Positions 13,862-54,628 of a DNA stretch of 64,000 nucleotides are shown here, in pieces. Source of the DNA: Candidatus Nealsonbacteria bacterium (GTDB taxonomy: Bacteria; Patescibacteriota; Minisyncoccia; Minisyncoccales; JAGGXC01); contig JAPLXH010000006.1 in assembly GCA_026396195.1 (NCBI GenBank), forward strand, positions 13,784 through 77,783, in the 5' to 3' direction. The position numbers and the translations under genes were made by a program. The stretch's first letter is position 1, and every line of letters starts with the position of its first letter. The notes under the pieces were generated by a model. That model ran no database searches. It saw only the letters and a list, made by a program, of their open reading frames with translations, and was not told the origin of the DNA.

Positions 13862-13866
13862 ATTTT

Positions 13867-15054: not shown

Positions 15055-15062
15055 TTTTTTAA

Positions 15063-15450: not shown

Positions 15451-16284
15451 CTATCTGACTCCTTTTTGGCGGCGGGACACTATGAATTTATCGGAATATT
15501 TTTTTCTTTTTCTTGTTTTTACTCCTTTGGCATGCTTTCCCCAGGGAGTTTTAGGATACTTCAAGCCGATAGGCGTGCTTCCTTCTCCTCCGCCATGAGG
15601 ATGGTCGCAGGGATTCATCGCTGTCCCCCGAACTCTCGGCCTTACTCCCATGTGGCGCGCTCTTCCGGCCTTGCCTATAACTATAAATCTGTTTTCCGGA
15701 CAAGAAATCTGGCCGATGGAAGCGAAACAATCTCCTAAAACTTTTCTGACTTCCGTGGAAGGAAACTTTATCTGGCAATATTTGTTTTCATGGGCTAAAA
15801 CCACGGCCGAAGAACCCGCTCCCCTGACTAATTTTCCCCCCTGGCCGGGAATCAATTCAATATTATAAACCGCGGTCCCTACGGGAATATTTTTTACTTT
15901 CATTCGGTTGCCCCCTGAAATCGGAGCCTCTTCCGCAAAAATAATTTCGTCACCCACTTTTAAATTGTGGGAAGCGATAATATATTTCCTTTCTTTGTCA
16001 GGGTATTCCAATAAAGCTAAAAAAGCTGTCCGGTTCGGGTCGTATTCCAAAGCAATTACTTTGGCTTTTACATCTAATCTTTGCTGGCCGAATTCAATAA
16101 TCCGGTAAATTTTTCTGGCCCCGCCTCCCTGATGCCTGGAAGTAATGCGGCCGGTATTATTTCTTCCGCCTTGTTTTTTCAAAGACACCAACAAATTTTT
16201 TTCCGGTCTTTTTTTCGTTAAAACCGTAAAGTCCTTGCTCATCATATGTCTCCTTGAGGGAGTTGTGGGTTTATAGCTTTTCAT
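15451..16284 (-). CDS. rplB: 50S ribosomal protein L2
   Basis: MNPCDHPHGGGEG. Confidence 0.98.
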   Translation of the reverse strand: MKSYKPTTPSRRHMMSKDFTVLTKKRPEKNLLVSLKKQGGRNNTGRITSRHQGGGARKIYRIIEFGQQRLDVKAKVIALEYDPNRTAFLALLEYPDKERKYIIASHNLKVGDEIIFAEEAPISGGNRMKVKNIPVGTAVYNIELIPGQGGKLVRGAGSSAVVLAHENKYCQIKFPSTEVRKVLGDCFASIGQISCPENRFIVIGKAGRARHMGVRPRVRGTAMNPCDHPHGGGEGSTPIGLKYPKTPWGKHAKGVKTRKRKKYSDKFIVSRRQKGVR

Positions 16285-16291
16285 AAAAAAA

Positions 16292-16765
16292 TTATCTTGG
16301 CAAAATTTCTATTTTTTGTCCTTCTTTTACTTTAATAATGGCTTTTTTATATCCTTTTTGCCAACCCTCATGCCTTCCCAACCTTCTTTTTCTCGCCGGA
16401 ATGTTTATAATCCTCACCGTCAAAACATCAATGCCGTACAGGTCTTGGACCGCTTTTTTAATTTCTATTTTATTGGCTCTTGAATAAACCTTAAAAACGT
16501 ATTTATTTTTTGCCACCAAATCCGTTGCTTTTTCGGTAACGTGGGGTCCTTTTAAAATCCACCTTTCTTCGCCCCGGGTTATTTTTTTAATTTTAATTTT
16601 TGGCTCCTCAATCTTTACTTCTTTTTTTTCCGGTTTTTTCTCAACCTCTTTCTTTTCCGGAATCTTCGCCGGCTTTTTTTCCGTCTTCTTTTTCGCCTTC
16701 TTTTCTTTCCAGGGCTTTTTTAAGGCTTCTTTTTTATTTTTTTTAAATTTGTCTAAAAAGCTCAT
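16292..16765 (-). CDS. rplW: 50S ribosomal protein L23 with ~60-aa Lys-rich N-terminal extension
   Basis: The C-terminal 95 aa form the L23 core (ILKGPHVTEKAT...KKAIIKV). The N-terminal part is KKEVEKKPEKKEV low complexity. Confidence 0.92.
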   Translation of the reverse strand: MSFLDKFKKNKKEALKKPWKEKKAKKKTEKKPAKIPEKKEVEKKPEKKEVKIEEPKIKIKKITRGEERWILKGPHVTEKATDLVAKNKYVFKVYSRANKIEIKKAVQDLYGIDVLTVRIINIPARKRRLGRHEGWQKGYKKAIIKVKEGQKIEILPR

Positions 16766-16769
16766 AAAT

Positions 16770-17399
16770 TTATTTTAAAAACGTTTCTCTTATCATTTTT
16801 ACCGATTCTTTCGGCAGAATTAAATACTTGGAAGAAAGCAAATCCAAAACATTCAAATTCCTTGCTTCAAGAGTTTTCAATCTCGGAATGTTTCTGGCTG
16901 ATAAAACTATTTTTTTATCCAATTTTGGCAAAGATATCAGGCAACTTTCGCTTTTGCAGGGAAGTTTTTTTAAAATTTCGGCCATTGTCTTTGTTTTTAT
17001 ATTTTCTATTTCAATTTTATCCAAAACTATTAAAAAGTTTTCTTTGGCTTTAACGCTCAAAACCATAAACAAAGCCTTTCTTCTCATTTTCTGGGGCATA
17101 TCTCTTTTAAAAACTCTTTGTTTTCTCGGCCCGAAAGTCACTCCGCCGCCTTTCCAAAGAGGAGAACGGATGGAGCCGTGTCGGGCGCGGCCGGTTCCCT
17201 TCTGTTGCCAAGGTTTCTTTCCTCCGCCCCTCACTTCGCTTCGGTCTTTGGTATGGGCGATAACCTGCCGGCGATTGCCTTTTTGGATGGTTACTGCCTG
17301 ATGGACTAAATCCGAATTAAAAGGAACTTCAAATATTTCCTTGGGAAGCAAGGCCTCGCTGACTGCTTTTCCTTCTTGATTATAAACTTTAATTTTCAT
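16770..17399 (-). CDS. rplD: 50S ribosomal protein L4
   Basis: GGGKKPWQQKGTGRARHGSIRSPLWKGGG. Confidence 0.97.
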   Translation of the reverse strand: MKIKVYNQEGKAVSEALLPKEIFEVPFNSDLVHQAVTIQKGNRRQVIAHTKDRSEVRGGGKKPWQQKGTGRARHGSIRSPLWKGGGVTFGPRKQRVFKRDMPQKMRRKALFMVLSVKAKENFLIVLDKIEIENIKTKTMAEILKKLPCKSESCLISLPKLDKKIVLSARNIPRLKTLEARNLNVLDLLSSKYLILPKESVKMIRETFLK

Positions 17400-17403
17400 A
17401 AAT

Positions 17404-17988
17404 CTATTCTTTAATTTCCAACAAGGTCCCTCTTCGGCCCGGAACCGCTCCTTTTACGGCTAAAATATTGTTTTCTTTATCTATCTTGGCAATCTTTAAA
17501 TTTCTTACTGTTATTCTTGCAAACCCCATATGGCCTGCCATTCTTCTACCTTTAATTACGTGCTGGGGATAACGGCAGCCTATTGACCCCAAAGTTCTTG
17601 ATTCATGTTTTATTCCGTGGGCAAAACCCCTGTCCCTGAATCCCCATCTTTTTACCGCTCCCTGAAAACCCTTTCCCTTTGAAATGCCGGAAATTCTTAC
17701 CTTGTCTCCTTCTTTAAAAATGGAAAGGTCTATCTCCTGTCCTAATTTTAAATCTTCGTTATTTTTAAATTCTTTTAAATATTTAAATTCTTTTTTGTTT
17801 TCGGTTTTTTTAATATTTTTTGTTTTTTTAATGAAACCCAATTGAACGGCCTCGTACCCGTCTTTTTCTTTATTTTTCACTTGCAAAACTTTGCAAGGCC
17901 CGGCTTCAATCAGAGTTACGGGAACAACTTCTCCTTTTTCATTGAATATCTGGGACATTTCTAATTTTTGACCAAGAATGAATTTCAT
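17404..17988 (-). CDS. rplC: 50S ribosomal protein L3
   Basis: GISKGKGFQGAVKRWGF. Confidence 0.97.
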   Translation of the reverse strand: MKFILGQKLEMSQIFNEKGEVVPVTLIEAGPCKVLQVKNKEKDGYEAVQLGFIKKTKNIKKTENKKEFKYLKEFKNNEDLKLGQEIDLSIFKEGDKVRISGISKGKGFQGAVKRWGFRDRGFAHGIKHESRTLGSIGCRYPQHVIKGRRMAGHMGFARITVRNLKIAKIDKENNILAVKGAVPGRRGTLLEIKE

Positions 17989-18152
17989 AATTTCGAAGCT
18001 TTAGCGAAAAATTATATAGTTTCCGCCAAAATTGAACTCTATATATTTATCAACGCAAAACTGGGCTACTAGCCCAGCCTAGACTAGTCTAATAAATTTT
18101 AAAAATATCTTATTTTTAAAAAAATTGCATATTTATTAATGAAAAATAGCAA

Positions 18153-18536
18153 TTAAGTTTTCATTTCGATATCCACTCCGGCCGGCATATTTAAATCCCT
18201 TAAGGTGTCTATTATTTTCCCCGAAGGGTTTAAAATCTCAATCAATCTTTTGTGGATTCTCATTTCAAATTGCTCTCTGGCATCTTTATGCACAAAAGTA
18301 GAACGGTTAACCGTATATTTATGAATTTCGGTCGGCAAAGGAATGGGACCTAAAACTTCTCCTCCGCATCGCAGAATGCTCTCTACGATTTGCTTAGCGC
18401 TGTTATCAATAATCTTATGGTCATAAGCTCTAAGCTTAACCCTAAGTTTAGGTCTTTCTCCTTCAATCTCTTTTTCCTTTAATTCTTTTTCAATGACTTT
18501 CTTCTTAGAAGTCACGGTATTCTTCTTGGAAATCAT
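18153..18536 (-). CDS. rpsJ: 30S ribosomal protein S10 with ~28-aa N-terminal extension
   Basis: LRVKLRAYDHKIIDNS...PLPTE. No internal Met is available that would shorten the N-terminus. Confidence 0.93.
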   Translation of the reverse strand: MISKKNTVTSKKKVIEKELKEKEIEGERPKLRVKLRAYDHKIIDNSAKQIVESILRCGGEVLGPIPLPTEIHKYTVNRSTFVHKDAREQFEMRIHKRLIEILNPSGKIIDTLRDLNMPAGVDIEMKT

Positions 18537-18621
18537 CTTTTAGCTTTATCTCGTCTTATTTATTTTATCATATGCCTTTGGGCATATATTCAAGGTTCTG
18601 TCTTTGATAAAAGACATGTCC

Positions 18622-19821
18622 TTACTTTTTTATCTTAGTCACTACTCCGGATCCCACGGTTTTGCCTCCTTCTCTGATGGCAAATCTTTGTAATTCTTGC
18701 ATGGCTACCGGGGCAATCAACTTGACGCTTACATTGGCCGTATCTCCGGGCATCACCATTTCGGCGCCGGCAGCTAAAGTAACGTCCCCGGTCACATCGG
18801 TCGTTCTTACGTAAAACTGGGGCTTATAACCTGTAAAAAACGGAGTATGACGGCCTCCTTCTTCCTTTGTTAAAATATAAACTTCAGCATCGAACTCGGT
18901 ATGGGGAGTTATGGAACCCGGTTTAGCTAATACCTGCCCTCTCTCAATATCTTCTTTTTTTGTTCCTCTTAACAAAATTCCAACGTTATCTCCGGCTCTC
19001 CCTTCGTCCAAAGATTTATTAAACATTTCAACGCTAACTACCGTTGTTTTTTGGGTCGGGCGAATGCCGACTATTTCAACATCTTCTCCGGACTTAATTA
19101 TTCCTTTTTCAATTCTACCTGTAGCCACTGTCCCTCTTCCGGCAATAGAAAAAACATCCTCAACCGACATCAAAAATGGCTTATCAATTTCTCTTTTGGG
19201 TTCAGGAATATAATCATCCAAAGCTTTGGCTAAGTCCAAAATCGGTTTGGCGTCAGGGTCATCGGCTGATTTAACTTCTAAAGCTTTTACAGCAGAACCC
19301 CTGATAATCGGAATCTCGTCTCCGGGAAATTCATATTTCTTCAAAAGCTCCCTTACTTCCGATTCCACCAAATTAATAATTTCCGGGTCGTCTACCGCGT
19401 CGCATTTATTTAAAAATACCACCAAACAAGGCAAGCCGACTTGGCGGGCCAATAAAATATGTTCTCTGGTTTGAGGCATCGGTCCGTCAGGAGCTGACAC
19501 CACTAAAATAGCACCATCCATCTGGGCGGCGCCGGTAATCATATTTTTAATATAATCAGCGTGTCCCGGACAATCAATATGAGCATAATGGCGTTTTTCG
19601 GTCTCGTACTCTACGTGGCAAATATTAATGGTCAATCCTCGGGCTTTTTCTTCCGGGGCTGAGTCAATTTCATTAATTCCCTTTTCAGAAGCTTTAAATC
19701 CTTTAAGTTTTAAAACTTTAAGAATTGCCGCTGTAAGAGTGGTTTTACCGTGGTCAACGTGGCCGATAGTTCCTATATTTAAGTGAGGCTTTGTTCTATC
19801 AAATTTTGCTTTTTCTACCAT
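18622..19821 (-). CDS. tuf: elongation factor Tu
   Basis: [30 protein letters not shown] chose the ATG at 19821; the track's TTG at 19839 adds 6 aa. Confidence 0.98.
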
Positions 19822-19970
19822 GTTTTTTGTTGCAATCAACTGTCTGAATAACTAAAAAATTTAATTACTTAAACAGTTCACTGCGTGATTTTTTATTATT
19901 TATTATTATTTATTAATTTTAATTTTAATAATTTATATATTACAAAAATTCAAAGATAAAGTCAACCCTT

Positions 19971-22076
19971 TTATCGTCTTTTTCCTTCAATTATCTCTTG
20001 GGCAATATTCTGAGGCACTTGTTCATAATGGTCAAATTCCATTGTAGATGTTCCTCGGCCTTCAGTCAATGATCTTAAAGCAGTGACATATCCAAACATT
20101 TCTGATAATGGCACTTTAGCATCTATAACTTTTAAATTTAACCTATCTTTTGTCTCATCAATACTGCCTCTTCTTGAATTTAGGTCGCCGATAGTGTCGC
20201 CAAAAAATTCAGCAGGTATTACCACCTCCAATTTCATTAAAGGCTCCAATAAAACTGGCTTTGCTTTTCTGCATGCTGATTGAAACGCCATGGAGCCTGC
20301 GATTTTAAAAGCAATTTCCGAAGAGTCCACTTCGTGGAAGGAGCCGTCGTAAAGAGTCACCTCTATGTCCACCATGGGATAACCGGCCACCACTCCCTTA
20401 CCCATCGCCTCTTTTATTCCTTTTTCAGTTGCCGGAATAAATTCTCTGGGAATTACTCCTCCCTTAATGTCATCAATAAATTCAAAACCCTCTCCCCTTG
20501 CTTTAGGCTTTACCTTTAACCAAACGTGTCCGTATTGGCCCCGGCCTCCCGACTGTTTGATATATTTTCCCTCGGCCTCCGCGGAATCGTTTATTGTTTC
20601 TTTATAAGCCACTTGCGGCCTACCCACGTTAGCTTCAACATTGAACTCTCTTTTCATTCTGTCGGCAATAACATCCAAGTGCAATTCTCCCATGCCGGAA
20701 ATAATAGTTTCTCCTGTGTCGTGGTCGGATTTTACTTTAAAAGTCGGGTCTTCTTCGGATAATTTTCTCAAAGCCAAGCCCATTCTTTCCTGGTCAGCTT
20801 TGGTTTTAGGTTCAATCCTGATGGAAATAACCGGTTCCGGAAAAACCATTTGTTCCAAAACCACCGGATTCGATTCATCGCAAAGAGTGTTCCCGGTGGA
20901 AGTTTTTTTCAAACCAACGGTAGCGGCAATATCACCGGCATAGAGAGAGTCCACTTCTTCCCGATGCTGGGCATGCATTCTTAAAATCCGGCCGATTCTT
21001 TCCTTTTCGTTGGTATTAGAATTTAATAAATAAGAACCTTTTTGCAATGAACCGGAATAAACTCGAAAATAAGTTAAAGTTCCGACATAAGGGTCGGAAG
21101 CCACTTTAAAAGCCAGAGCGGAAAAAGGCTCTTGGTCTAAGGGATTTCTTTCAACTTCTTTGCCGGTTCTGGGGTCAATTCCCTTTATTGGCGGCAAATC
21201 AATAGGTGAGGGCAAATATTCGCAAATTCCGTCCAATAAGGGCTGAATTCCCTTGTTTTTTAAAGCCGAGCCGACGAAAACCGGAATAATCTTATAGCTG
21301 CAAACCGATTTTCTGATGACTTTTTTTATTTCTTCAACCGAAGGTTCTTCGCCCGCCAAATATTTTTCCAATAAAAACTCATCTTCAGCAACCACTTTGT
21401 CCAGTAATTTTTTCCGCCATTCTTTGGCCGTTTCCAATAAATCCTGGGAAAGTTCTTCTTCGATTAGTTCTTCTCCGCTCTCCCCCTTAGATGTTATTGC
21501 TTTCATTTTTAATAAATCAATCACCCCTTCAAATTTCTCTTCCTCGCCGATTGGAATTTGAACGGCCATGGCATTGGGAGAAAGCTTAAACCAAATGGAT
21601 TCCATGTCTTTTTTAAAATCAGCCCCCATCCGGTCCATTTTATTAATAAAACAAATTCGAGGAACGGAATATTTATCAGCTTGACGCCAAACTGTTTCCG
21701 ATTGCGGTTCCACTCCGGCTACTCCGTCAAAAACAACAACCGCTCCGTCCAAAACTCTTAAAGACCTTTGAACTTCAACGGTAAAATCAATGTGGCCGGG
21801 AGTGTCTATAATATTAATCCTGTATTCCCTTCCCTTAACAGCTTTGGTTTCGCCGGGAGTCCAGAAACAAGTGGTGGCGGCGGAAGTAATGGTTATTCCC
21901 CGTTCTCTTTCCTGAATCATCCAGTCCATAATTGCTTCTCCTTCATGAACTTCTCCAATTTTATGGGAAATTCCGGTGTAAAACAAAATTCGCTCACTGA
22001 CCGTTGTTTTGCCGGCGTCAATGTGAGCTATGATTCCGATGTCTCTATATCTTTCTATTGGATATTGTCTCGGCAT
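19971..22076 (-). CDS. fusA: elongation factor G
   Basis: [22 protein letters not shown]; 701 aa. Confidence 0.98.
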
Positions 22077-22124
22077 AAAATAAAAAAAACTAATATCTAA
22101 TTTTAATTTATGAATAAACTTTTA

Positions 22125-22268
22125 GGCGAGGTATGAATTTCAAAGGCAGCTTTCGGAGTCCTACCAGTACGGTTTCCGATTAAATCGGAATGGCGGGACG
22201 AGAACGCAGACCTCAAAATCTCGCTGGGATTTTGAAGGTCGATGACTTTGAAATTTACAACGAGCCGT
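22125..22268. repeat. GC-rich, MITE-like structured insertion in the rpsG-fusA spacer
   Basis: Imperfect terminal inverted repeats: GGCGAGGTATGAATTTCAAAG versus the reverse complement of CTTTGAAATTTACAACGAGCCG. Internal hairpins are TTCCGATtaaATCGGAA and CCTCAAAATC..GATTTTGAAGG. Confidence 0.6.
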
Positions 22269-22272
22269 CTAT

Positions 22273-22731
22273 TTACCAATTAAAACGGGCAAAAGCTCGG
22301 TTAGCTTCAGCCATGCGGTGAGTGTCTTCTTTCTTTTTTATGGCTTTTCCGGTATTTTCAGCGGAGGCCATTATTTCTTCGGCTAATTTTTTCGCCATTC
22401 CTTTTCCTTTTTTTGACCTTGCCGCATCAATAATCCATCTGGTAGCTAAAGTCAAAGCCCTTTCTCTTTCCACGGGAACGGGCACCTGATAGGTTGCGCC
22501 TCCGACTCTTTTTGGCCTGACTTCAACCAAGGGAGTGGCATTTTTTAAAGCCTCTTCAAAAACCAGAAGAGGTTCTTTGTTTTTCTTTTTAATCTCATCG
22601 AAAGCATCGTAAACAATTTTTTCGGCGGTAGTTTTTTTTCCCTTTTTCATCACCTTATTAATAAAAACCGCCACGCTCACGCTGTTGTGGATGTAATCAG
22701 GTTGGATTGTTCTTTTTTTAATCTTTGCCAT
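22273..22731 (-). CDS. rpsG: 30S ribosomal protein S7
   Basis: [17 protein letters not shown]. Confidence 0.97.
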
Positions 22732-22734
22732 ATT

Positions 22735-23151
22735 TTATTCGGATTTAGGTCTTTTAGCTCCGTATTTTGATCTTTGCTGTTTTCGGCCTTCGACTCCGGC
22801 GGTGTCCAAAACGCCCCGCACAATGTGATATCTTACTCCGGGCAAATCCTTAACCCTTCCGCCTCTTATTAAAACAATCGCGTGTTCCTGCAGATTATGT
22901 CCCTCCCCGCCGATGTAAGCAGTTACTTCTTTGCCATTACTTAATCTTACCCTTGCCACTTTTCTCAAAGCGGAATTCGGTTTCTTTGGGGTCACGGTTG
23001 AAACCTTAATACAAACTCCTCTTTTAAAGGGAGCTAAATATTTTATTTTTCTATTTTTTAAAACGTTAAAACCGAACTTTAAAGCTCTGCTCGCTTGAAG
23101 CTTTTTGATTGATTTTCTCGGATTTTTAATTAATTGATGAATAGTCGACAT
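22735..23151 (-). CDS. rpsL: 30S ribosomal protein S12
   Basis: [19 protein letters not shown]. Confidence 0.98.
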
Positions 23152-23232
23152 AGTATAATTACAAAATTAATCAAGCGTTTAGCGCTTGAGTTTTAAATTA
23201 TCAAAAAAAACCAAAGGTGTCAATAGTTTTTT

Positions 23233-23850
23233 TTAAAAAATTATAGGCATCCCTACGAGTAATTTATAAATTAGGGAAATTAAGGGGCCCAAAAATCGGA
23301 AAAGAACAAAAACAACAAAAATTAAAATGAAAAATTGATACTGCGTTAAAAAAATTCTGATTTCTCTGGTTATCGCGGATTCCGGCAAAAAAGTGAATAA
23401 AAGATGGGAACCGTCCAAGGGAGGAATGGGAATCAAATTAAATAAAAATAAAACCAAATTTATAAAAACAACGTAACTGAAAAGATTATAAAGTCCGAAC
23501 GTTAAAGGCGCAAATCTCAAAATCATTCCGAAAACGAAAGCAAGAATAAAATTGGCAGCAGGCCCGGCCAAAGCCACTTTCGCTTCGCCGTATTTTTTAT
23601 CAATAAAGTTTGCCGGATTTATCGGAACCGGTTTTGCCCAACCAAAAAGCACGGGGCTCTGAAAAATAAGTAAAATCAGGGGAATGAAAACTGAACCCAT
23701 CGGGTCTAAGTGTTTTACGGGATTCAAGCTGAGACGCCCCGCCATTTTTGCCGTAGGGTCTCCCAAATAATCAGCCACTGCTCCGTGGGCGACTTCGTGA
23801 ATCACAACCGACAAAATTAAGATAACAAAAGAAAAAATAACAAAAATCAT
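23233..23850 (-). CDS. site-2 protease family (M50) membrane metalloprotease
   Basis: HEVAHG (HExxH) in TM1; polytopic; LNLIPIPPLDG motif. Confidence 0.85.
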   Translation of the reverse strand: MIFVIFSFVILILSVVIHEVAHGAVADYLGDPTAKMAGRLSLNPVKHLDPMGSVFIPLILLIFQSPVLFGWAKPVPINPANFIDKKYGEAKVALAGPAANFILAFVFGMILRFAPLTFGLYNLFSYVVFINLVLFLFNLIPIPPLDGSHLLFTFLPESAITREIRIFLTQYQFFILIFVVFVLFRFLGPLISLIYKLLVGMPIIF

Positions 23851-23933
23851 ATTTGATATTTAACTGATATATAAAATGATAGCAAAGATTACAACCCTTG
23901 CCAAGTCATTTCAAAAAAGATATATTATTTTAT

Positions 23934-24122
23934 ATGTCTAGAATTTGCCAAATTTGTGATAAGGGCGGTTCAGTGGTGGGAAAAATAGTAAAATCCAGAA
24001 GTAAATACAATCCCACCAAGAATTCGAGGAAACATCCCAATCTTCAATGGACTCGCCTTACCAGTGGAAAAAAAGTTTTAGCTTGTACCCGATGCATTAA
24101 AAAAACCGCTAAAAACAAATAA
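23934..24122 (+). CDS. rpmB: 50S ribosomal protein L28
   Basis: MSRICQICDKGG...SRSKYNPTKNSRKHPNLQ. The ATG at 23934 is preferred to the track start at 23898. Confidence 0.9.
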   Translation: MSRICQICDKGGSVVGKIVKSRSKYNPTKNSRKHPNLQWTRLTSGKKVLACTRCIKKTAKNK

Positions 24123-37063: not shown

Positions 37064-38320
37064 TTATTTTTCTTCTTTTTTTCTTCTTTTAAATAATAAA
37101 AACAACAAAAATAAGATAATAATTAAAAGTAAAATTATCAGCCAGTTATTGCCAAATTTTCCCAGTACATCTATTAAAGAAGCTAATCCTCCTGAGAGAA
37201 AAGCTCTAAGACCTTCATTAGCTTGATTTCCCAATCCTTCCTGCCCTTCTTCTTCTCCTTGTCCGCCATTTCCTGCTGTCAGCTCATTTCCCTCGCCCCC
37301 TTCGACTTCGCTCGGGACAGGTCCTTGATTGCCTCCGGTTTCTCCGCCCAAAGCAATTTGTTGACCGGGCGTTTCACTTCCGCCAGCTGGAGGATTTCCT
37401 CCTTCTTCTTGATTCCCGCCTGTATTTTGGTTAGCGCAATTTTCTGCGGTCACAGTAGTGAAATTAAATTCTCCGGTAATTGATGACGGTGAAGCATGGG
37501 ATTCGCAGCGGAAATAATAAGTGGTATTTGGAGAAAGCCCGGTAATAGTTACGGAATGAGCGGTTACTTTTTCAAGCAAGCTGTTGTCTCCTTCTTTTGA
37601 ATTTGCGTAGCCATAATTTAAAGCATATAAATCAAAGTTGTGGGATTCGCTCGCTTTTGAATAAACTACCCGGCTGGTAGAAAAATAATTTGTAGTCCAA
37701 TTGATAGTTATACTGCAGGATTCACAACCGGTAAGATTGGTTGAAGCCACTGATTCGCTCAAAATAGTTAAACCCTGTGGCAAAGTTCCGCCTCCGCCTC
37801 CTCCGCCGCCTCCACCTTCCGTTATGCCGTTGCCATCTCCGTCTTGTCCTTCCTCTCCCTGAAATCCGATTAAAATATCAAAACCCAATGCTTTTCCCTG
37901 ATAATCATTATTGCTTGCGGAATCAAAAGCAATCGTAAGGTCATATTGTTTTGTAGCCCCATTAGCCAAATCAGAAAGATAAAATTGTCCGGCGTTAAAA
38001 AAGTTAATCAAAGTATTGTTATAAAGAATAGTTGCTCCTTCTTTGATTGTTAAATTCAATTGGGAAGCAAAATTATCCGGGTCGCTTTCATTTATTGTTT
38101 CAATGGCAATTCCTCGGCTTTCTCCGCTGTTGTTGGTTACTTTTATCCAGCGGGTAATTCCCTCGCCCGGCAAAAAGTTCGCCTCTTTGAACAAAGGCGT
38201 TTTTTCAAATTCAACTGCCAAAGGATCAGCAGGTTGAGCATAAGTTGAATTCACTGTTAAAATCCCTGTTCCAAGAACGATAAGTGAAATTAATAAAATT
38301 GTTTTATAAACTTTGTTCAT
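37064..38320 (-). CDS. TasA/camelysin-fold domain + poly-Gly + FN3-like domain, C-terminally TM-anchored surface protein
   Basis: Ordinary signal peptide (..NSTYAQP). Core FLPGEGITRWIKVTNNSG...NNDYQGKALGFDILIGFQ resembles the TasA core. G9 run. RVVYS..YYFRC FN3-like. The C-terminus is FLSGGLASLIDVLGK + TM + KRRKKEEK. Confidence 0.7.
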   Translation of the reverse strand: MNKVYKTILLISLIVLGTGILTVNSTYAQPADPLAVEFEKTPLFKEANFLPGEGITRWIKVTNNSGESRGIAIETINESDPDNFASQLNLTIKEGATILYNNTLINFFNAGQFYLSDLANGATKQYDLTIAFDSASNNDYQGKALGFDILIGFQGEEGQDGDGNGITEGGGGGGGGGGTLPQGLTILSESVASTNLTGCESCSITINWTTNYFSTSRVVYSKASESHNFDLYALNYGYANSKEGDNSLLEKVTAHSVTITGLSPNTTYYFRCESHASPSSITGEFNFTTVTAENCANQNTGGNQEEGGNPPAGGSETPGQQIALGGETGGNQGPVPSEVEGGEGNELTAGNGGQGEEEGQEGLGNQANEGLRAFLSGGLASLIDVLGKFGNNWLIILLLIIILFLLFLLFKRRKKEEK

Positions 38321-38328: not shown

Positions 38329-40470
38329 TTATTCTGTAACAGCGCTCGGTTCAGGAGCAGCGCCCGTTGTTTCCACAACTGCTGCCGGCGGAGGTTCAAC
38401 TGCGCTCGGAGCTGGTTCCGGGCTTATTGTACTGTCTCCGCCCGTGCTTCCATCAGTTGGCGGATCGCCAGCTGGCGGATTGCCTTGAACTGAAGAGCTG
38501 TCTTGGGGCGACATAATCACTTCCTGTTCAATTGCCGGAGTTTGGTCTATTGAAATTTGTTCTTCTGTCGGATTATTTTCAATGACTGGCGGTTCTTCTA
38601 TTGGTGTTTCCTCGGCCGGTAATTCTTCTATTGGTGTTTCTTCGGTCAATGTTTCTTCGGTCAATGTTTCTTCGATAACAATTGTTCCATCATCAGTGGA
38701 AACTCCTGTTCCGCCGCCGCCTCCACCAAAAATTCCTTCGATTATTAAATCTTCCGTAGTAGTGGCGATTCCTTCCGTTGTAGTAGGAAATTCTTCTGTG
38801 GTAGTGGAAATTTCCTCGGAAGTGGTAGAACCTTCTTCAGGCAACAATCCCATAGCTTTCAAAGCTTCTATTTCTTCAGGCAATAATAATTCATAATCTA
38901 TTGGCGGACAAAAATCAGCGTCAGACATATCCCAATCTTGCACCATAAAGTTCTCCGGTCCCCAAGCCACAGCTTTTATCCTGGCAGTATGAGAAACAAC
39001 ATAATAAGTGCCTCCTATATATAAAGGTATTCTCCAGGCATAAGTACCGTCATTTTCCGTTCCTGTTGCTATCTTCCCCCAAGTAGCTCCTGAATCTCGA
39101 GAATACCAAAGGTCAATTGTTAAATCAGTGTCAGTGCCGTTTGGATTAGTGGCTGACCATTTTAAATCATAAGTTCGGCCGACATACAAAACTTCTCCGC
39201 CATTAGGCCAGATTACCGTAATTTCAGGCAATCCTAAATCTTTCCAATCCGAGGCCTGGTTTGTATCAAGGCCGGTTGGAATCCTCGCCAGCATATGGCC
39301 TTCGTTAACGTCAGGACAAGCCGGGTCAAAGGCAAAAGTGTCAGTGCCATAACTCACGGCATCATCTATTGTTCCGCTGGGCAACTTAAGAATTACCCGG
39401 TCCGAATCATTGTCTAATCCGTCCCCGATTGCGCCATCATCTAAAACAATTTTTATTATATCATCCGGAATCTGCCAGTAACTCCAGGTCGAAGCACTGC
39501 CTGTAATAATCGCAAATCCTTTGGCTGGAATAGGACTGGAAGATGGAATGACATCGGTCGAAGAATTATCTTCAATTGTCCAGCCGGAAATATCTACCGG
39601 ATTATCCAAAGGATTATATATCTCAATAAATTCGTTGCCAGGCTCTAAACCGTGGTCAGCGTCCACGTCATAATAAACTTTATTTATTTTTATTCCTCCG
39701 GCAGCAAAAGAACTGTTTATTTCTTCTGTGTCGTTAAATCCCTGGCCAAACGCTAAATCGTTTCTCGTCTGGGAGCCGTCAAAAACAAATTTTACCTGGC
39801 AAACTTCTCCGGGAACAAAAATCACATCTGAAGGCAAGGTTACGGTGAAAAGCCAATCATCTTGTTTGTCGTCGCCAATTACAATTAACGGGTCTATATT
39901 TAAATTCATCAAGCCGTCGCTGTATTTTGTTTCGCCATTTAGCTTGGCTTCTAATTTTAAAAGATTGCAAAAATCAAGATTTCCGCCGGCTTGGACTGTT
40001 TTGATATTATATTTAAATTGATTGGTATTTGCTTCTTGAATAATGCTAATTTCCCGGGTGATTGTATCCCCGGCTTTCATATTAGCAACGGTTTCTAAGG
40101 GAATAAAATTCGGAGTTGGCGAAGATAAATAAAAATCTAAAGTTCCGGCTTGATAAAAATTAGCATTGGAATCCTCTGTGTCGTTATAATAAGCAATAGT
40201 TTCGCCGATGATAGACAAGGCGTTCCAATTCAAAAGCACAATAAGCGATAAAGCTGAGATTTTCAGAATTAACTTTTTGATAAAAGCAAATTCTGATCCC
40301 GAGCGTAGCCGAAGGACTCGTCCTGCCTGTCCTGAGCGCAGTCGAAGGAAGCGCAGTCGAAGGGCTTTCTTTTTCCTTGTTTTCGCCTTAACTAACTTTG
40401 GCTTTTTCTTTCTTTTACTTTCAGCCTTAATTAGTTTGGGCTTTTTTTTCTTTATTCTTTTTAATTTCAT
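38329..40470 (-). CDS. SipW-cognate-leader TasA-like protein with lamin-tail domain (LTD) and Pro/Thr/Glu-rich tail; start codon uncertain
   Basis: IGETIAYYNDTEDSNANFYQAGTLDF leader motif. LTD: NEFIEIYNPLDNPVDISGWTIED. The only ATG (40470) gives a 65-aa Lys/Arg-rich N-region that reads through a GC-rich repeat and overlaps sipW by 44 nt. Confidence 0.75.
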   Translation of the reverse strand: MKLKRIKKKKPKLIKAESKRKKKPKLVKAKTRKKKALRLRFLRLRSGQAGRVLRLRSGSEFAFIKKLILKISALSLIVLLNWNALSIIGETIAYYNDTEDSNANFYQAGTLDFYLSSPTPNFIPLETVANMKAGDTITREISIIQEANTNQFKYNIKTVQAGGNLDFCNLLKLEAKLNGETKYSDGLMNLNIDPLIVIGDDKQDDWLFTVTLPSDVIFVPGEVCQVKFVFDGSQTRNDLAFGQGFNDTEEINSSFAAGGIKINKVYYDVDADHGLEPGNEFIEIYNPLDNPVDISGWTIEDNSSTDVIPSSSPIPAKGFAIITGSASTWSYWQIPDDIIKIVLDDGAIGDGLDNDSDRVILKLPSGTIDDAVSYGTDTFAFDPACPDVNEGHMLARIPTGLDTNQASDWKDLGLPEITVIWPNGGEVLYVGRTYDLKWSATNPNGTDTDLTIDLWYSRDSGATWGKIATGTENDGTYAWRIPLYIGGTYYVVSHTARIKAVAWGPENFMVQDWDMSDADFCPPIDYELLLPEEIEALKAMGLLPEEGSTTSEEISTTTEEFPTTTEGIATTTEDLIIEGIFGGGGGGTGVSTDDGTIVIEETLTEETLTEETPIEELPAEETPIEEPPVIENNPTEEQISIDQTPAIEQEVIMSPQDSSSVQGNPPAGDPPTDGSTGGDSTISPEPAPSAVEPPPAAVVETTGAAPEPSAVTE
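40298..40364. repeat. GC-rich palindromic units (CCGAGCGTAGCCGAAGG, CCTGAGCGCAGTCGAAGG, GCGCAGTCGAAGGG) inside the 5' part of ORF 38329..40470
   Basis: Same unit family as 45511-45642, 50619-50684 and 54108-54620. Here it is translated as LRLRFLRLRSGQAGRVLRLRSG. Confidence 0.75.
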
Positions 40471-41032
40471 GTATTATTTTCTTGATTTCGTCAAAAATAA
40501 TCACGAGGGCAGGAGCTATAATTAACAAAGCGAATCCCATGGGCTGTTTTGCGAAATTAACCACGTAGCCTAAATAAGGGATTGAAAAAACGACCTTTCC
40601 TAAAACTTCTTTTTTCTGGACTTCTCTGGCGTCAGGCGCATTATTGGCGTCCCCTTTAGTAATATAAACAACATTTCCTTCGTTAACTTTAATGTCAAAA
40701 ATTCTGTGGCTGGTCGGCGCTTTGGTTTTTGTCACCGGCCCGAAAGTAATCACGTCTCCGATTTTATAATCTGCTTGCCCTGAGCCTGCCGAAGGGAGCG
40801 GTTTCACCATCACCAAGCTTCCGGTTTTAATCTGGGGCGCCATTGAACCTGACTGCACAATCATAAATTTAATATTTCCGGTAACCGGAAAAACCGAAAC
40901 AATCAGCAAGCCTGCAACCAAAACTATAAAAATCAGAAATATGTAATAAACCCACCCACTTAAACGGGTGAAACGTTTATTTGTTTTTATTTCTTGAAGA
41001 ATAGGTTTTTTTGTTTTTTCTGATTCTTCCAT
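40427..41032 (-). CDS. sipW: signal peptidase I, archaeal/ER (SipW) type
   Basis: IVQSGSMAPQIKTGSLVMV (Ser), APTSHRIF (His), YITKGDANNAPD; N- and C-terminal TM segments. Confidence 0.85.
   Translation of the reverse strand: MEESEKTKKPILQEIKTNKRFTRLSGWVYYIFLIFIVLVAGLLIVSVFPVTGNIKFMIVQSGSMAPQIKTGSLVMVKPLPSAGSGQADYKIGDVITFGPVTKTKAPTSHRIFDIKVNEGNVVYITKGDANNAPDAREVQKKEVLGKVVFSIPYLGYVVNFAKQPMGFALLIIAPALVIIFDEIKKIIHEIKKNKEKKAQTN
40773..40799. repeat. single palindromic unit GCTTGCCCTGAGCCTGCCGAAGGGAGC lying in-frame inside sipW
   Basis: It shares the 12-mer GCTTGCCCTGAG with 54191-54202. It encodes the extra loop PLPSAGSGQA between the conserved VMVKP and DYKIGDVITF. Confidence 0.6.
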
Positions 41033-45203: not shown

Positions 45204-45510
45204 AGTGTATTTTGTATTTTTTCTTTCCCCCGTTAACCTGCCAAAGCAAGTTAAACGGAGTTAGTTATTTTTAATTTATTTCCCGTGTAGCCCACGGTGG
45301 CTCGACCTTGTTAGGGTCTCACCGCAGTATTTTTCAACTACGGATTAATTACGCCCTGAATCATACCCCAAACCCAAAAGGGTCAGGTCGCCCGAAACTC
45401 CTCCGGTTCGGGACATATTTCAGGGTTGAAACCCTTGCCGCCACATCTAATTTTTTAGATACGCCGGCAAAGATTACTTCCTGGCCGTTTATATATATAT
45501 GTAAATGTAA

Positions 45511-45642
45511 CACTTCGACGGAGTTTATGGTGAGTTTATCGAACCACTCAGGGCAAACCCTTCGACTCGCTTCGCTCGCTTCCTTCGACGAACTCAGGAC
45601 AAGCAGGACAAGTCCTTCGACAAGCTCAGGGTAAACAAAAAC
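45511..45642. repeat. cluster of GC-rich palindromic units (CTTCGAC-N-CTCAGG type)
   Basis: CACTTCGACGGAG..., CACTCAGGGCAAACCCTTCGAC, CCTTCGACGAACTCAGGAC, CCTTCGACAAGCTCAGGGTAAACAAAAACC. The last matches 54121-54146. Confidence 0.8.
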
Positions 45643-45876
45643 CGTTCAAACAAAGAACGGCAAAATTAAATTTCTCTCTCCCATTTTTATAAATTAAATT
45701 TTCTCTAATTTTTTCGCAATGTGAAAAAATCACTTGGTCTGATCTAGTTCCTCCGCTAGATAATTATCCAATTTAATACTTATTCAATTTATGATATTCT
45801 AAATAAAAGGTCAAGTGATAAAAGGAAAAGTTTTCCAAAAGTTTTCCACCATTTAATCCACACCAATTTTTCTTCT

Positions 45877-45949
45877 AAAATGTCGTCCGCGGGCACCGAA
45901 ATTAGGGAGGAACTTATCATCTAAAAACGGTGCCCAAGGACGGCATTTT
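45877..45949. repeat. 22-bp near-perfect inverted repeat around a 29-nt loop
   Basis: AAAATGTCGTCCGCGGGCACCG ... CGGTGCCCAAGGACGGCATTTT (20 of 22 complementary). Confidence 0.7.
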
Positions 45950-46020
45950 AATTTCTAGTCCGATTTATCGGACTGAATGAATCTTGTTTATTTTATCTAC
46001 AGAAATTCATTCACTCAATT

Positions 46021-46047
46021 TTAAAAGCGTAGCATGTTAGCTACGCT
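46021..46047 (-). terminator. probable terminator of the sortase operon
   Basis: The minus strand reads AGCGTAGC-taacat-GCTACGCT followed by TTTTAA. It lies ~105 nt after the stop at 46154. Confidence 0.5.
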
Positions 46048-46153
46048 GGACTATTCCAATTTACAATATTGAAAAATCTTGTCAATATCCTTAGGACATC
46101 CTTCAACTACGTTCAGGATAAATTTTCTACTGAACAAATAAAAAACAAAAACT

Positions 46154-47428
46154 TTATTTCTTTTTTAGAAAATCACGGGCTTTAATCTGGGCGATTTTCA
46201 ATTCAAGAACTTTTTTAGAATTATAATCCTGATATTTTTTTCTTTTTAAATAAAACCAATCCTGAATTCTTACAATATAGGACTTAAAAAACCAAACAAT
46301 GCCTAGAGCAATTGATAAGGGCAAAAAGAAAGAATCAAGCAATAAATTATTGGTGATGCCGGTGTTAACATTAGTCGCAGCTCCAGCTGCCGCAGTTTTA
46401 GTAACAACAATGGTGGCGGTTTTTGAATTTGAATTATTAGAGCTCGAAACTAAAGCCGTATTTACCAGTTGATTTTGGCCGGAATTAAATTTATCGGCTC
46501 CGGCCAGAAAAGCGGTAAAAGTAATTGTTTTTTCCTGGCCCGAAGACAAATCCCCGATATTCAAACCCGAAAAAATATTTCCGGAAACTGCTGTCCCGTT
46601 TACTTGCAGGGAATTGTTTTGATAAATCAACTTGTCAGGCAGAGTGTCGGTCACTATTACATTATATAAACTGGAATTTTCTGCCCTGACTCTGATAGAA
46701 AAAGAAATTAATTCTCCAGGGTCAGCATAAATTAAATTCGCAAAAGCTCCTCCGTCAGAAAGGTTCCGAGCTAACTTTTCCGTAAAAATATTTCCCGTAT
46801 TGGCGCCGGAAATGTTTATCCAAACGCTATTCGAAACAGCAGTGCCTCCCGAATTTGAACAAGTAATTGTGTAATATTTGGAAGAAGTAAGGTTGCCGGT
46901 TGACTCGGAACCGGAAGTTGATTTTGAACCTGACCAATCCCCTGAAGCTGTACAGGAATTGGCATTACCCGAAGTCCAACTTAAATTTGCGGATGTATTA
47001 TAGGCAATAGTTACAGGTCCATCGGAATTATTGGCTTTAATATCAACTGTCGGAGCTGAAGGGTTGCAATTGGAAGCTTGAATTTGAAAAGTATCTTCAG
47101 CGGTCTTGCCTTCTCTCTCGGCTCTTACTTTGGCAGTATAGTTCCCCGGCGAAGAATAGTCGCAGAGATTAACAACAGTATAAAAAGCGGCATTGGAATT
47201 GTTTATTTCTAAATCCCAGATTCCGTTATCAGTACAGTCAAACTTATAATTAATATTTCCTTGGGCAGTTCCCGAAACCGTGACCTTTAAATCAACTTCA
47301 TTCAAAGGCGAACAGCCGGAGGCGGGAATCGCTTCCAGGTCCAAAGAAAGAGTCTGACTCTGGGCATTAACCGTTAGAACAAAAGAAAAAAATAAAACTA
47401 AAGAAACAATTAATAAATTTTTTTTCAT
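46154..47428 (-). CDS. secreted surface protein with Ig/PKD-like repeats and a DUF11-type repeat; candidate sortase substrate
   Basis: Signal peptide ...LTVNAQSQ. DUF11-like VTDTLPDKLIYQNNSLQVNG. The C-terminus is ATNVNTG + TM (LPLSIALGIVWFF) + basic tail. Its start is 5 nt after the sortase stop. Confidence 0.75.
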   Translation of the reverse strand: MKKNLLIVSLVLFFSFVLTVNAQSQTLSLDLEAIPASGCSPLNEVDLKVTVSGTAQGNINYKFDCTDNGIWDLEINNSNAAFYTVVNLCDYSSPGNYTAKVRAEREGKTAEDTFQIQASNCNPSAPTVDIKANNSDGPVTIAYNTSANLSWTSGNANSCTASGDWSGSKSTSGSESTGNLTSSKYYTITCSNSGGTAVSNSVWINISGANTGNIFTEKLARNLSDGGAFANLIYADPGELISFSIRVRAENSSLYNVIVTDTLPDKLIYQNNSLQVNGTAVSGNIFSGLNIGDLSSGQEKTITFTAFLAGADKFNSGQNQLVNTALVSSSNNSNSKTATIVVTKTAAAGAATNVNTGITNNLLLDSFFLPLSIALGIVWFFKSYIVRIQDWFYLKRKKYQDYNSKKVLELKIAQIKARDFLKKK

Positions 47429-50451: not shown

Positions 50452-50618
50452 TTTTATGTTTTTTACTGTTTAGTTAGCGACCTACTCCTATCTACTTACT
50501 TATTTTAATTTTTAGTAAGGGTTCGCGAGTACGACATTTCTTAAAAAGAAACGTTCTTTGATGATATACCTAATAAAAATATTTGTCAAGAGTAGCCTTT
50601 ATAAAGGCTACTCGCAGA

Positions 50619-50684
50619 TACTGAGCTTGCCTGCCCTGCTTGTCCTGAGTTTATCGAAGGAAGTTCATCGAAGGGTCGAAGCAT
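50619..50684. repeat. GC-rich palindromic units (ACTGAGCTTGCCTGCCCTGCTTGTCCTGAGTTTATCGAAGGAAGTTCATCGAAGGGTCGAAG)
   Basis: Same unit family. It is preceded by the hairpin AGTAGCCTTTATAAAGGCTACT (50591-50612). Confidence 0.75.
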
Positions 50685-50706
50685 CAAGAGCCGATAATAA
50701 GGCCGA

Positions 50707-51480
50707 TTAAATTTTTAAAATTAAAAACCAGAACAAAAGAGCCAAAATTATGCGGTAAACCCCGAAAGAAATGAAAGTATGTTTTTTTATGAAAAAAAGC
50801 AAAAATTTAACGCTCAGGGCCGCCACAAAAAAAGAGGTAATGAATCCTAAGATTAAAAAATGAAGCTGAGGGAGAGAAAAATTGCTTGCGTTTTTCGATA
50901 AATCAAAAAGGGTGGCAACAAGTATTGTGGGAACAGCCAATAAAAAAGAAAATTCAACAATGGTTTTTCTTTTTAAACCCAAGCCCAATCCCCCGATTAT
51001 GGTAGCTGCCGCCCGGGAAACGCCGGCAATCATGGCGAATGATTGGAAGGTGCCGATTAAAAAAGATTGAAAATAAGAAATCTCGGCAATGCTTTGCTTT
51101 GCCTCTTTTTTTTCTTTGTATAAAAACTCAAAAACAATTAAAAAAATACCGCCCAGAAAAAGCGCCCAAAGAACAACCTTGTCCTGCATTAAAAAATCTT
51201 TAAAGGTTTTATAAAAAACAAATCCTAAAATTCCGGTCGGGATAAAGGCGACAATCACTCTTTTTAAAACTTTTCTTTCCACTAAAAAAGATTTCCAATA
51301 TAAAAAAACTATCGATAAAACCGCTCCCAGCTGAATGGCGATTTCAAAACTTTTCAAAAATTCAGTTTGTTTTAATTCCAAAATCCGGGAAGCCAGAATT
51401 AAATGCCCGGTTGAAGAAATCGGCAGAAATTCAGTGACCCCTTCCACTATTCCCAAAATTATCACGTGAATTAAATTCAT
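50707..51480 (-). CDS. uppP: undecaprenyl-diphosphate phosphatase
   Basis: GIVEGVTEFLPISSTGHL; polytopic; 257 aa. Confidence 0.93.
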   Translation of the reverse strand: MNLIHVIILGIVEGVTEFLPISSTGHLILASRILELKQTEFLKSFEIAIQLGAVLSIVFLYWKSFLVERKVLKRVIVAFIPTGILGFVFYKTFKDFLMQDKVVLWALFLGGIFLIVFEFLYKEKKEAKQSIAEISYFQSFLIGTFQSFAMIAGVSRAAATIIGGLGLGLKRKTIVEFSFLLAVPTILVATLFDLSKNASNFSLPQLHFLILGFITSFFVAALSVKFLLFFIKKHTFISFGVYRIILALLFWFLILKI

Positions 51481-54107: not shown

Positions 54108-54276
54108 ATTCTACCACTTCGATAAACTCAGTGTAAACAAAAAACCCTGCCTACCGGCAGGCAGGCGCCTGATTGGCGATTTTTATATTGGCTTGCCCTG
54201 AGGAGCGTAGCGACGAATGGGTGGCTTGCCGAAATATACCTGCCCTGAATTTATTGAAGGGTTAGAACCTGTTTTT
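54108..54276. repeat. composite intergenic block A (promoter TAGAAT + palindromic units + 54-bp 3' sub-repeat)
   Basis: ATTCTACCACTTCGATAAACTCAGTGTAAACAAAAAACC ... GGCTTGCCGAAATATACCTGCCCTGAATTTATTGAAGGGTTAGAACCTGTTTTT. It is paralogous to block B. Confidence 0.8.
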
Positions 54277-54287
54277 GGTAAAGAATT

Positions 54288-54461
54288 TTATAAAATCAAA
54301 ACTAAGAATGATAAAATTAAAATAATAATTCCTATTAGTCCGAAATCATTCTGTCTGGGGTATGGCAGTGTAAATACTCCAGGAATCCGACTTCTAGTAG
54401 CAAGAGTAAACAACGAACCAATAAAGAAGAGAGCAAAAAATAAAATCATTCTTATATTCAT
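54288..54461 (-). CDS. small two-TM membrane protein (57 aa)
   Basis: MNIRMILFFALFFIGSLFTL...LIGIIILILSFLVLIL. TAGAAT lies 8 nt upstream of the ATG. Confidence 0.5.
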   Translation of the reverse strand: MNIRMILFFALFFIGSLFTLATRSRIPGVFTLPYPRQNDFGLIGIIILILSFLVLIL

Positions 54462-54469
54462 ATTATTTA

Positions 54470-54620
54470 ATTCTACCACTTCGACCCTTCGACGCAACTC
54501 AGGGCAGGTAAACTCAGTGTAAACACTTCGACGAGCTCAGTGTAAACAAAAAACCACTCTATTGGTGGCTTACGGAAATATGCCTGCCCTGAACTTATTG
54601 AAGGGTTAGAACCTGTTTTT
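54470..54620. repeat. composite intergenic block B
   Basis: ATTCTACCACTTCGACCCTTCGACGCAACTCAGGG...CTTCGACGAGCTCAGTGTAAACAAAAAACC...GGCTTACGGAAATATGCCTGCCCTGAACTTATTGAAGGGTTAGAACCTGTTTTT. Confidence 0.8.
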
Positions 54621-54628
54621 AATCTTTG

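Follow-up and report, generated by a model that had tools for sequence, protein, structure and literature searches.

The 64,000-nt stretch of DNA analyzed here (the window) covers positions 13,784 to 77,783, forward strand, of contig JAPLXH010000006.1 from Candidatus Nealsonbacteria bacterium (GCA_026396195.1). It has a GC content of ~37%, and among its genes are a cluster for ribosomal proteins and SecY and an operon that encodes sortase, SipW, and surface proteins resembling TasA/camelysin. Assemblies of the Patescibacteria, or candidate phyla radiation (CPR), are the source of all SipW relatives, and judged by these relatives the host is a low-GC Patescibacteria genome. The subject of this study is a short GC-rich repeat of the window, which lies mostly between genes and is also found in frame in three open reading frames (ORFs): those of a SipW-type signal peptidase, an LTD/camelysin-like secreted protein, and a Pur_ac_phosph_N protein with a C-terminal anchor (ORF 37064..38320). 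The SipW protein scores 17.2 bits against Pfam Peptidase_S26, below the cutoff of 22.9; its SGSM box, histidine, and GDxN...D box are all present, and S61, S63, M64, H109, G127-D128, and D134 are invariant in the alignment (A1) of SipW homologues.

The repeat unit has the consensus (G)CTTGY-CCTGAG-N5-6-TCGAAGG-G, also written (G)CTTGYCCTGAG-N5-TCGAAGGG, with a core of 17 to 18 nt and a head of 5 to 6 nt, about 24 to 27 nt in all. There are ~15 units in the 64-kb window, the majority intergenic, and they occur singly, in tandem, or nested in the loops of other units (Table 1). The pattern CCTGAG-N4-8-CGAAGG has six exact matches in the window and none in any of 100 dinucleotide shuffles, and looser scans recover compensated variants, with one position altered in each arm (ACTGAG..CGAAGT, CCTGAA..TGAAGG, and GGTGAG..CGAACC). 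Around the 8-base core TGAG-N5-6-CGAA, both flanking pairs are complementary in 9 of 9 window occurrences (0.6 expected), with three types of closing pairs (CC..GG, AC..GT, and GG..CC). Outside the window, both pairs are complementary in 24 of 57 cores from 830 kb of CPR loci (expectation, 3.6) and in 37 of 84 cores from metagenome loci, counted in their unselected parts (expectation, 5.2), compared to 4 of 35 for a scrambled control core. Because of the six exact matches against none in 100 shuffles and the nine complementary cores, chance is excluded for the SipW and window matches, and the family is real.

Since the pairs flanking the invariant TGAG/CGAA core covary, the unit is read as a small hairpin, in which a T-A pair, a tandem G.A/A.G, and a G-C pair enclose a loop of 5 to 6 nt and are closed by two to four covarying pairs. 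In predicted folding energy (DNA, nearest-neighbor), the units of the window show no advantage over shuffles (z 0 to +1.4); thermodynamic stability was therefore dropped as an argument, and the structural case is built on covariation. The original prediction, which had been made from the letters of the window, called the units palindromic: this is right for three to four Watson-Crick pairs plus the tandem G.A/A.G but finds no support in the folding energy. Rfam returned chance-level matches only, both with gathering thresholds over the whole window and in E-value mode over two repeat clusters, and the unit is outside curated RNA families. Stop codons are absent from five of its six reading frames.

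Table 1. Repeat units of the window and the genes that contain them
Feature	Position	Strand	Remarks
SipW-type signal peptidase I gene, 201 aa	40427..41032	-	Gene with the loop insertion; its homologues are annotated as signal peptidase I
SipW unit, in frame	40772..40798	-	Codons L79-A87 (LPSAGSGQA); net +21 nt vs empty alleles
Hairpin core of the SipW copy, CCTGAGCCTGCCGAAGG	40779-40795	+	Antisense to sipW
Gene for LTD/camelysin-like secreted protein, longest ATG frame 713 aa	38329..40470	-	LTD and Peptidase_M73 domains
Lys-rich N-terminal extension of the LTD protein (putative)	40365-40470
LTD repeat block	40298..40364	+	In ORF 38329..40470, antisense to the gene; read as LRLRFLRLRSGQAGRVLRLRSG
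Unit of the LTD block, CCCGAGCGTAGCCGAAGG	40298-40315	+	Partial 5' heads come next
Second unit of the LTD block, CCTGAGCGCAGTCGAAGG	40331-40348	+
Extra 3' half of the LTD block, AAGCGCAGTCGAAGGG	40349-40364	+
Stalk unit, CCCGAGCGAAGTCGAAGG	37299..37316	-	Sense, in frame (PSEVEG in ...GPVPSEVEGGEG...); Gly/Glu-rich stalk, ORF 37064..38320
Intergenic array	45511..45636	-	Canonical units 45582-45598 and 45614-45630; repeated 3' halves; one composite
Inverted unit GGTGAGTTTATCGAACC (GGTGAG..CGAACC) of the composite in 45511-45553	45529-45545	+	Nested in the loop of another unit
Intergenic unit, compensated inner pair (CCTGAA...TTGAAGG)	46100..46117	-	3-4 units at the orthologous L081 site
Intergenic nested array	50620..50682	+	Downstream of bacA; unit CCTGAGTTTATCGAAGG (50644-50660) with several 5' halves before it and several 3' halves after it
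Unit ACTGAGTTTATCGAAGT, compensated outer pair	54108..54138	-	Between TTTACA and TGGTAGAAT hexamers
Intergenic units	54190..54261	+	Include GCTTGCCCTGAG... (12-mer also in the SipW copy) and CCTGAATTTATTGAAGG
Intergenic array	54470..54547	-	Upstream of a gene for a small membrane protein; ACTGAGCTCGTCGAAGT, CCTGAGTTGCGTCGAAGG, second TCGAAGTGGTAGAAT
Intergenic unit, CCTGAACTTATTGAAGG	54583..54605	+	Belongs to a local duplication of 54217-54290
Unit sequence with predicted tandem G.A hairpin, CCTGAGCGAAGTCGAAGG

In the SipW gene, the unit was said to stand in frame between the conserved blocks VMVKP and DYKIGDVITF, as it does, and the sequences and translations quoted for this copy (40773-40799, GCTTGCCCTGAGCCTGCCGAAGGGAGC) and for the 12-mer GCTTGCCCTGAG that it has in common with 54191-54202 were correct on re-reading. 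The SipW proteins compared are the window protein and its 120 best homologues. The loop is absent from 102 of these 121, in which a turn of two residues joins VKP to DYKIGD; an alignment of SipW orthologs had been proposed as a check on the insertion, and this outcome supports mobility. The 19 carriers are filled always at the same site, with 8 to 10 residues, or 13 in P0078, that follow the pattern xHSTGSGQA or LPSAGSGQA, a surplus of 6 to 7 residues (11 in P0078) over the empty alleles. Filled alleles read AAACCn-[CTC/GCC/GTC]CC[T/A]TTCGAC[A/G]GGCTCAGGGCAAGCn-GAT and empty ones have six variable bases at this place, a net difference of 21 nt. The eight carriers with DNA read are repeat-like (CC[CA]TTCGAC[AG]GGCTCAGGGCAAGC), except for L088, in which another palindrome occupies the same site; neither a loop free of such nucleotides nor a match at chance level, the two outcomes named as speaking against the insertion, was found. 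The L088 palindrome folds strongly (z -4 to -5), and no further copies of it occur in the 6.3 kb of L088 itself. When seven carriers are compared, a given residue has the same codon in 76% of comparisons within the insert and in 51% within 50 flanking codons, and the insert has 58% GC versus 43% in its flanks; the nucleotides, beyond the peptide, are conserved or recently derived. In the structure predicted by AlphaFold, residues 81 to 85 are the only segment with a predicted local distance difference test score (pLDDT) of <50, and they lie in the loop that connects strands 73-77 and 94-97.

On a neighbor-joining SipW tree built from 168 core columns, parsimony counts 16 changes between filled and empty states, compared to a mean of 17.8 (range 15 to 19) with random labels, and by this measure carriers are scattered almost randomly over the tree. 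Nine carriers have an empty nearest neighbor at a similarity of at least 85%. Two close syntenic relatives of the window were available, namely, L081, part of the 804-kb contig Ga0265297_10000012 from the Joint Genome Institute with 80 to 90% nucleotide identity to the window, and L083/L084, from Logan assemblies. Filled and empty DNA sequences are 87.4% (L085/L086) and 87.7% (L081/L087) identical, and two carriers, the window and L081, are 85.2% identical; at least three events are needed to account for these six sequences. The dipeptide of empty sites is hypervariable, with 42 different hexamers in 55 loci and no common remnant. On this ground an excision footprint, suggested by the likeness of GCAAGT in L087 to the tail of the unit, was rejected.

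The neighborhood of the SipW gene also differs between these lineages. An 84-aa GIY-YIG gene stands between the SipW and LTD genes in L081 (10586-10840) and L089 (10568-10822), with no counterpart in the window (40427-40470). It replaces the C terminus of SipW (which reads ...HPVK or ...SPC before the stop), and the old SipW 3' end persists downstream in L081 as a relic. C termini altered in this way are found in 5 of 19 carriers and 2 of 102 noncarriers. Since five of the seven carriers with DNA have no such gene, co-conversion with it would explain the loop in part at best. In L088, a gene with 23S_rRNA_IVP/bAvd domains (347-697) lies directly upstream of the palindrome-carrying SipW gene; bAvd is the accessory protein of diversity-generating retroelements.

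SipW is not the only coding sequence with units. Outside the SipW and LTD genes the family had been described as intergenic, which does not hold, since a further in-frame copy at 37299-37316 is read as VPSEVEGG in ORF 37064..38320. This stalk copy is shared with L083 (VLSEVEGGV) and missing in L081, where the alignment has a 9-residue gap. The LTD protein of L081 carries two tandem units (SPEPVEGTSPEPVEG) in its C-terminal linker, and none are present there in the window or L083. At the N terminus of the LTD protein, the block at 40298-40364 does lie within the only ATG-initiated frame of ORF 38329..40470 and is read as LRLRFLRLRSGQAGRVLRLRSG, as predicted; instead of three tandem units, it holds two full units and an extra 3' half. 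Repeats at this N terminus are present in the window, L081, and L086 (in another arrangement and other frames in the last) and absent from L083. Units run antisense to the gene in SipW and at the LTD N terminus and sense in the stalks. Alignments with close relatives show that the in-frame copies in the SipW loop, in the putative LTD N-terminal extension, and in the Gly/Glu stalks of two surface proteins are each present in some and absent in others. More generally, unit number and position vary between genomes that are 80 to 90% identical; in the spacer 45636-46160, the window and L081 share a noncoding core, and their repeat arrays differ in number and side.

Is the family confined to this lineage? 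A scan of metagenomes with CTTGYCCTGAG-N5-TCGAAGG found the unit in at least 120 contigs with GC contents of 31 to 71%, most near 60%, and, among the matches listed, with unrelated flanks and a far from random N5 loop (CGAAG in 34 of 122, CGGAG in 10, and CGCAG in 10). A full scan of viral contigs gave 40 matches, with the loop skewed here too. The family is thus not CPR specific. In the viral locus L246, several 5' halves are followed by several 3' halves, the same kind of nesting as at 50620-50682, and L213 has tandem 3' halves. Units also lie in genes of low-GC metagenome contigs: one in a MiaA gene adds three residues relative to 3d3q and 2qgn, one is in a ValRS gene, and one in an FtsA gene reads PSTSLRAR over the native PSRSLQRQ. 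In CopA, GLALSVVEGF overlies the native GLSLGSVEAF with 0 net residues, at the same site in two CopA genes that are 50% identical. The alignments of CopA, FtsA, and MiaA suggest that the unit overwrote look-alike native sequence. At L184 (27-2009), two units (NPSTSLRVKNQ and NPSTSLRARNQ) lie in one long frame that joins FolC-like and ArgRS-like regions, which reflects either read-through of a spacer brought about by the repeats or a trap for annotation.

How does so small a unit come to stand in frame in genes? We consider it probable that the family, GC-rich hairpin repeats of about 24 to 27 nt that are mostly intergenic and also in frame in genes, is tolerated selfish or neutral DNA spread by templated copying, and the in-gene copies are best read as such DNA rather than as adaptations. 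The proposal that a selfish element is active or tolerated in coding DNA here is thereby supported, by the 102 of 121 SipW proteins without the loop and by three further in-frame copies that are present or absent among relatives. The unit is too small to code for anything, and no transposase was detected among 39 window proteins scanned with Pfam, a set that left out ~20 ORFs of the ribosomal-protein region (about 9000-24000). Copies in genes would survive because five of six frames are open and because selection filters frame and site, retaining length changes in multiples of three; the survivors would occupy permissive segments, such as the SipW site, a hypervariable two-residue turn that is predicted to be disordered once filled. 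Template switching driven by hairpins, or short-patch conversion with other copies as donors, is favored over cut-and-paste transposition as the most likely mode of spread, since units nest in loops and half-units duplicate, since the unit recurs at one SipW codon in many lineages, and since native stretches of CopA, FtsA, and MiaA seem to have been replaced with little or no change in length. A trans-acting single-strand (HUH/RAYT-like) enzyme would be an alternative route.

Other explanations were weighed for the two sites at which units meet the SipW and LTD genes. That the SipW loop is a native protein feature resembling the repeat by chance can be regarded as refuted: the segment from SGSM to GD(V/I)ITF probably varies in length between S26 families, but an exact 17-nt pattern match together with the shared GCTTGC head faces none in 100 shuffles, 102 of 121 close homologues have no loop, and the codons are GC rich (TCG, GGC, and GGG) in a 37% GC genome. 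More credible, if still doubtful, is a single ancient insertion in the clade ancestor followed by many exact deletions, which makes a recurrent insertion hot spot unnecessary. The shared site, orientation, and SGQA core of typical carriers agree with such a history, short palindromes are generally known to be prone to slippage deletion, and parsimony is blind to 16 gains versus 16 losses. It would, however, need ~16 deletions, every one in frame and with exactly two residues left behind, and the empty sites show no repeat footprint and many different dipeptides. Also at odds with it, insert lengths vary (8, 9, 10, and 13 residues), L088 has a different palindrome, codons agree better within the insert than at synonymous flanking sites, and 84% of homologues are empty. 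For the LTD gene, comparative evidence leans toward translation of the N-terminal extension; if it is translated, the repeats lie in the n-region of the signal peptide that SipW removes. The original prediction allowed that the annotated LTD start might be wrong, in which case the repeats at 40298-40364 would be noncoding, LTD would start at its orthologues' position, and the units would lie in the SipW-LTD spacer or 5' leader. Spacers and leaders are where such units usually lie, many orthologues, among them P0122, P0123, P0130, and P0133, begin directly at MKKSLIKI-type signal peptides, the repeat-free L083 has ATG at the orthologues' start, with TTG there in L086 and five codons in in L081, and repetitive extragenic palindromes (REPs) placed inside the N-terminal part of a gene frequently result from misannotation (PMC3733652). 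At that position the codon is TTC in L081 and ATC in the window (40279-40281), a rare initiator, and the remaining candidate starts of the window are ATT and CTG, four and five codons downstream. Over the 102 to 192 nt upstream, moreover, only the frame of the gene is free of stops in the window, L081, L083, and L086, with an in-frame ATG in each lineage, and the other frames hold one to seven stops, including in one frame the stop of SipW itself. The Lys-rich stretch is kept in frame by three different repeat arrangements, substitutions in it between the window and L081 fall mostly on third codon positions by our reading of the alignment, and long basic extensions are also present at the N termini of several orthologues that are more distant. 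These points weaken the wrong-start alternative; a noncoding block is a minority view of some weight.

The unit might also be a selected cis-element, such as a tandem-G.A hairpin, in RNA or DNA, to which a protein binds, or a module of promoters or terminators, with in-gene copies as by-products or as functional copies. Its invariant non-Watson-Crick core with covarying closing pairs, the conservation of the motif over contigs of 31 to 71% GC, and two copies that separate the hexamers of promoter-like TTTACA / TGGTAGAAT sites a short way upstream of a start codon are what such an element would lead one to expect. Units nevertheless stand in both orientations relative to transcription, the in-gene copies being antisense (SipW and LTD N terminus) or sense (stalks), their copy number and position shift between close relatives, Rfam has no match, and the folding energy is unremarkable, all of which makes selection for such a role improbable. 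Tolerated selfish or neutral DNA is the reading we prefer, and several points weigh against it as well. The covariation could stem from a few amplified subfamilies; one old SipW insertion with many exact losses fits the tree as well as repeated gains do; and the tree itself has 168 columns and no bootstrap, so that nearest-neighbor calls are weak beyond ~85% similarity. Copy counts for the host genome cover 64 kb alone. In metagenome and viral collections this large, some exact matches are expected by chance, and selection by the pattern favors native peptides that look like translations of the unit, so that the replacements in CopA, FtsA, and MiaA may partly be a selection effect. No mobilizing enzyme, target-site duplication, or intermediate was seen, and the mechanism of spreading is what we infer. 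A bolder form of the account takes all copies as one structure-defined hairpin family of ~24 nt (TGAG/CGAA tandem G.A core) across many bacterial phyla and viruses, which spreads without a transposase, copied from a template into its own loops and into similar or hot-spot sites in genes, and has recurrently rewritten loops of SipW, CopA, FtsA, and MiaA in independent lineages, an unnamed general generator of small protein-loop variation; this is speculative and, taken whole, unlikely.

Several observations concern the surroundings of the intergenic units. A noncoding stretch of ~430 nt (45650-46080, minus strand) is conserved between the window and L081, with blocks of >90% identity, and contains a promoter-like TTGACA/TAAATT site, several strong hairpins, a loop containing CCUCC, and a terminator. 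It has no long ORF and no Rfam match and may be a small RNA that annotation has missed; relative to L081, 56 nt with a hairpin are inserted in the window. In L081 (5612-6220), a type IV pilin-like gene (N_methyl/T2SSG) lies between the genes for a 507-aa protein and a camelysin-like protein and has no counterpart at the syntenic window position 45204-46153. The sequence GTTTAC-ACTGAG-N5-TCGAAGTGGTAGAAT occurs twice on the minus strand (54108-54140 and 54470-54547), each time 11 nt upstream of an ATG, which for the unit at 54108..54138 is that of a P-type ATPase gene. The unit here spaces a -35-like and an extended -10-like hexamer, which would imply nearly leaderless mRNAs. A general role of units as promoters was rejected, as TCGAAGTGGTAGAAT occurs only twice, both times in 54108-54547, a region with a local duplication. 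This duplication (54217-54290 / 54555-54625) comprises the 3' flanks of two small membrane-protein genes, including a unit of the CCTGAA..TTGAAGG type. ORFs of 50 to 108 aa run through the arrays at 45308-45634, 40208-40525, and 50558-50710 (all on the plus strand), with translations such as MVSLSNHSGQTLRLASL... and ...PERSRRTRPACPERSRRKRSRRA...; they are artifacts of the stop-free frames of the unit and would be called hypothetical proteins.

Genes that contain short palindromic repeats have been described in Rickettsia, cyanobacteria, and a few proteobacteria, and the tiny genomes of CPR bacteria are usually regarded as streamlined. Our literature search found no description of the unit, of its peptide translations, or of in-gene short palindromic repeats in CPR/Patescibacteria. 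The same codon of an essential-type enzyme, filled or empty in close lineages, offers a natural series for following the movement of an element and the tolerance of a protein. Units also create spurious ORFs and peptide motifs (LRLRSGQA, PFDxAQGK, LSEVEG, and PSTSLRA) and shift predicted start codons; therefore, they should be masked when CPR and other metagenomic genomes are annotated. If self-nesting across phyla is true, it points to an uncharacterized, transposase-free mode of spreading.

Among known systems, the original prediction had likened the units to Rickettsia palindromic elements (RPEs). RPEs (Ogata et al. 2000, summarized in PMC10969869) are described as about 100 to 150 bp long, found only in Rickettsia, and encoding a conserved peptide of their own. 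The likeness lies in repeated palindromic DNA that stands in frame in unrelated protein genes, is present or absent among orthologues, and yields a fold-compatible insert landing in surface segments. In-frame presence and absence is found for the unit in SipW, at the N terminus of LTD, at the C terminus of LTD (L081), and in the Pur_ac_phosph_N protein. The differences are a size of ~24 nt (net SipW insertion of 21 nt), a CPR host plus contigs of 31 to 71% GC, and the use of several frames and both orientations. To our knowledge, the unit shares nothing with the RPE consensus sequences, for which no library was searched. The likeness thus stands as an analogy, in-frame copies present in some lineages and absent in others, but not as membership, given ~24 nt versus 100 to 150 bp and no known shared sequence. 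REPs are imperfect palindromes of 20 to 40 bp tagged by GTAG/CGTC, with intragenic copies in loops, linkers, and termini (Di Nocera et al. 2013, PMC3733652). As short imperfect palindromes with many copies, mostly intergenic and in clusters or inverted pairs, the units resemble them (PMC3733652) as well as the REPIN/RAYT system (PMC3116915). Unlike REPs, the units have no terminal GTAG or CGTC tag, GTAG occurring only inside some loops, and their stem has three to four Watson-Crick pairs plus the tandem G.A instead of 5 to 13 bp. No RAYT was found among the 39 Pfam-scanned window proteins (ORFs of the ribosomal-protein region, about 9000-24000, left out), and, again unlike REPs, units nest in each other's loops and one protein site is hit repeatedly.

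Closest in size and nesting are the small dispersed repeats (SDRs) of heterocyst-forming cyanobacteria, which Elhai and coworkers reportedly described in 2008 as noncoding, nested repeats of 21 to 27 nt that occur occasionally in conserved genes and whose movement was unexplained. The likeness covers the size class, nesting (here at 45511-45553, 50620-50682, and L246), and in-gene copies; the host phylum and the sequence families differ. We know of no description of cross-phylum spread or of a conserved G.A core for SDRs. Template-switch mutagenesis at quasi-palindromes, associated with the names of Ripley and Lovett, is said to be a point-mutation or small-patch process within one locus and not to seed dispersed repeats. 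It would explain the compensatory changes in the arms, the duplicated half-units, growth from the loop, and overwriting without a transposase; that it also seeds a dispersed family is what we infer here. The unit is neither an RPE nor a GTAG/CGTC-tagged REP and behaves like intragenic REPs, RPEs, and cyanobacterial SDRs. What it adds to the known class of short palindromic repeats that enter coding DNA is a recurrent site in one enzyme and a self-nesting unit that apparently crosses phyla.

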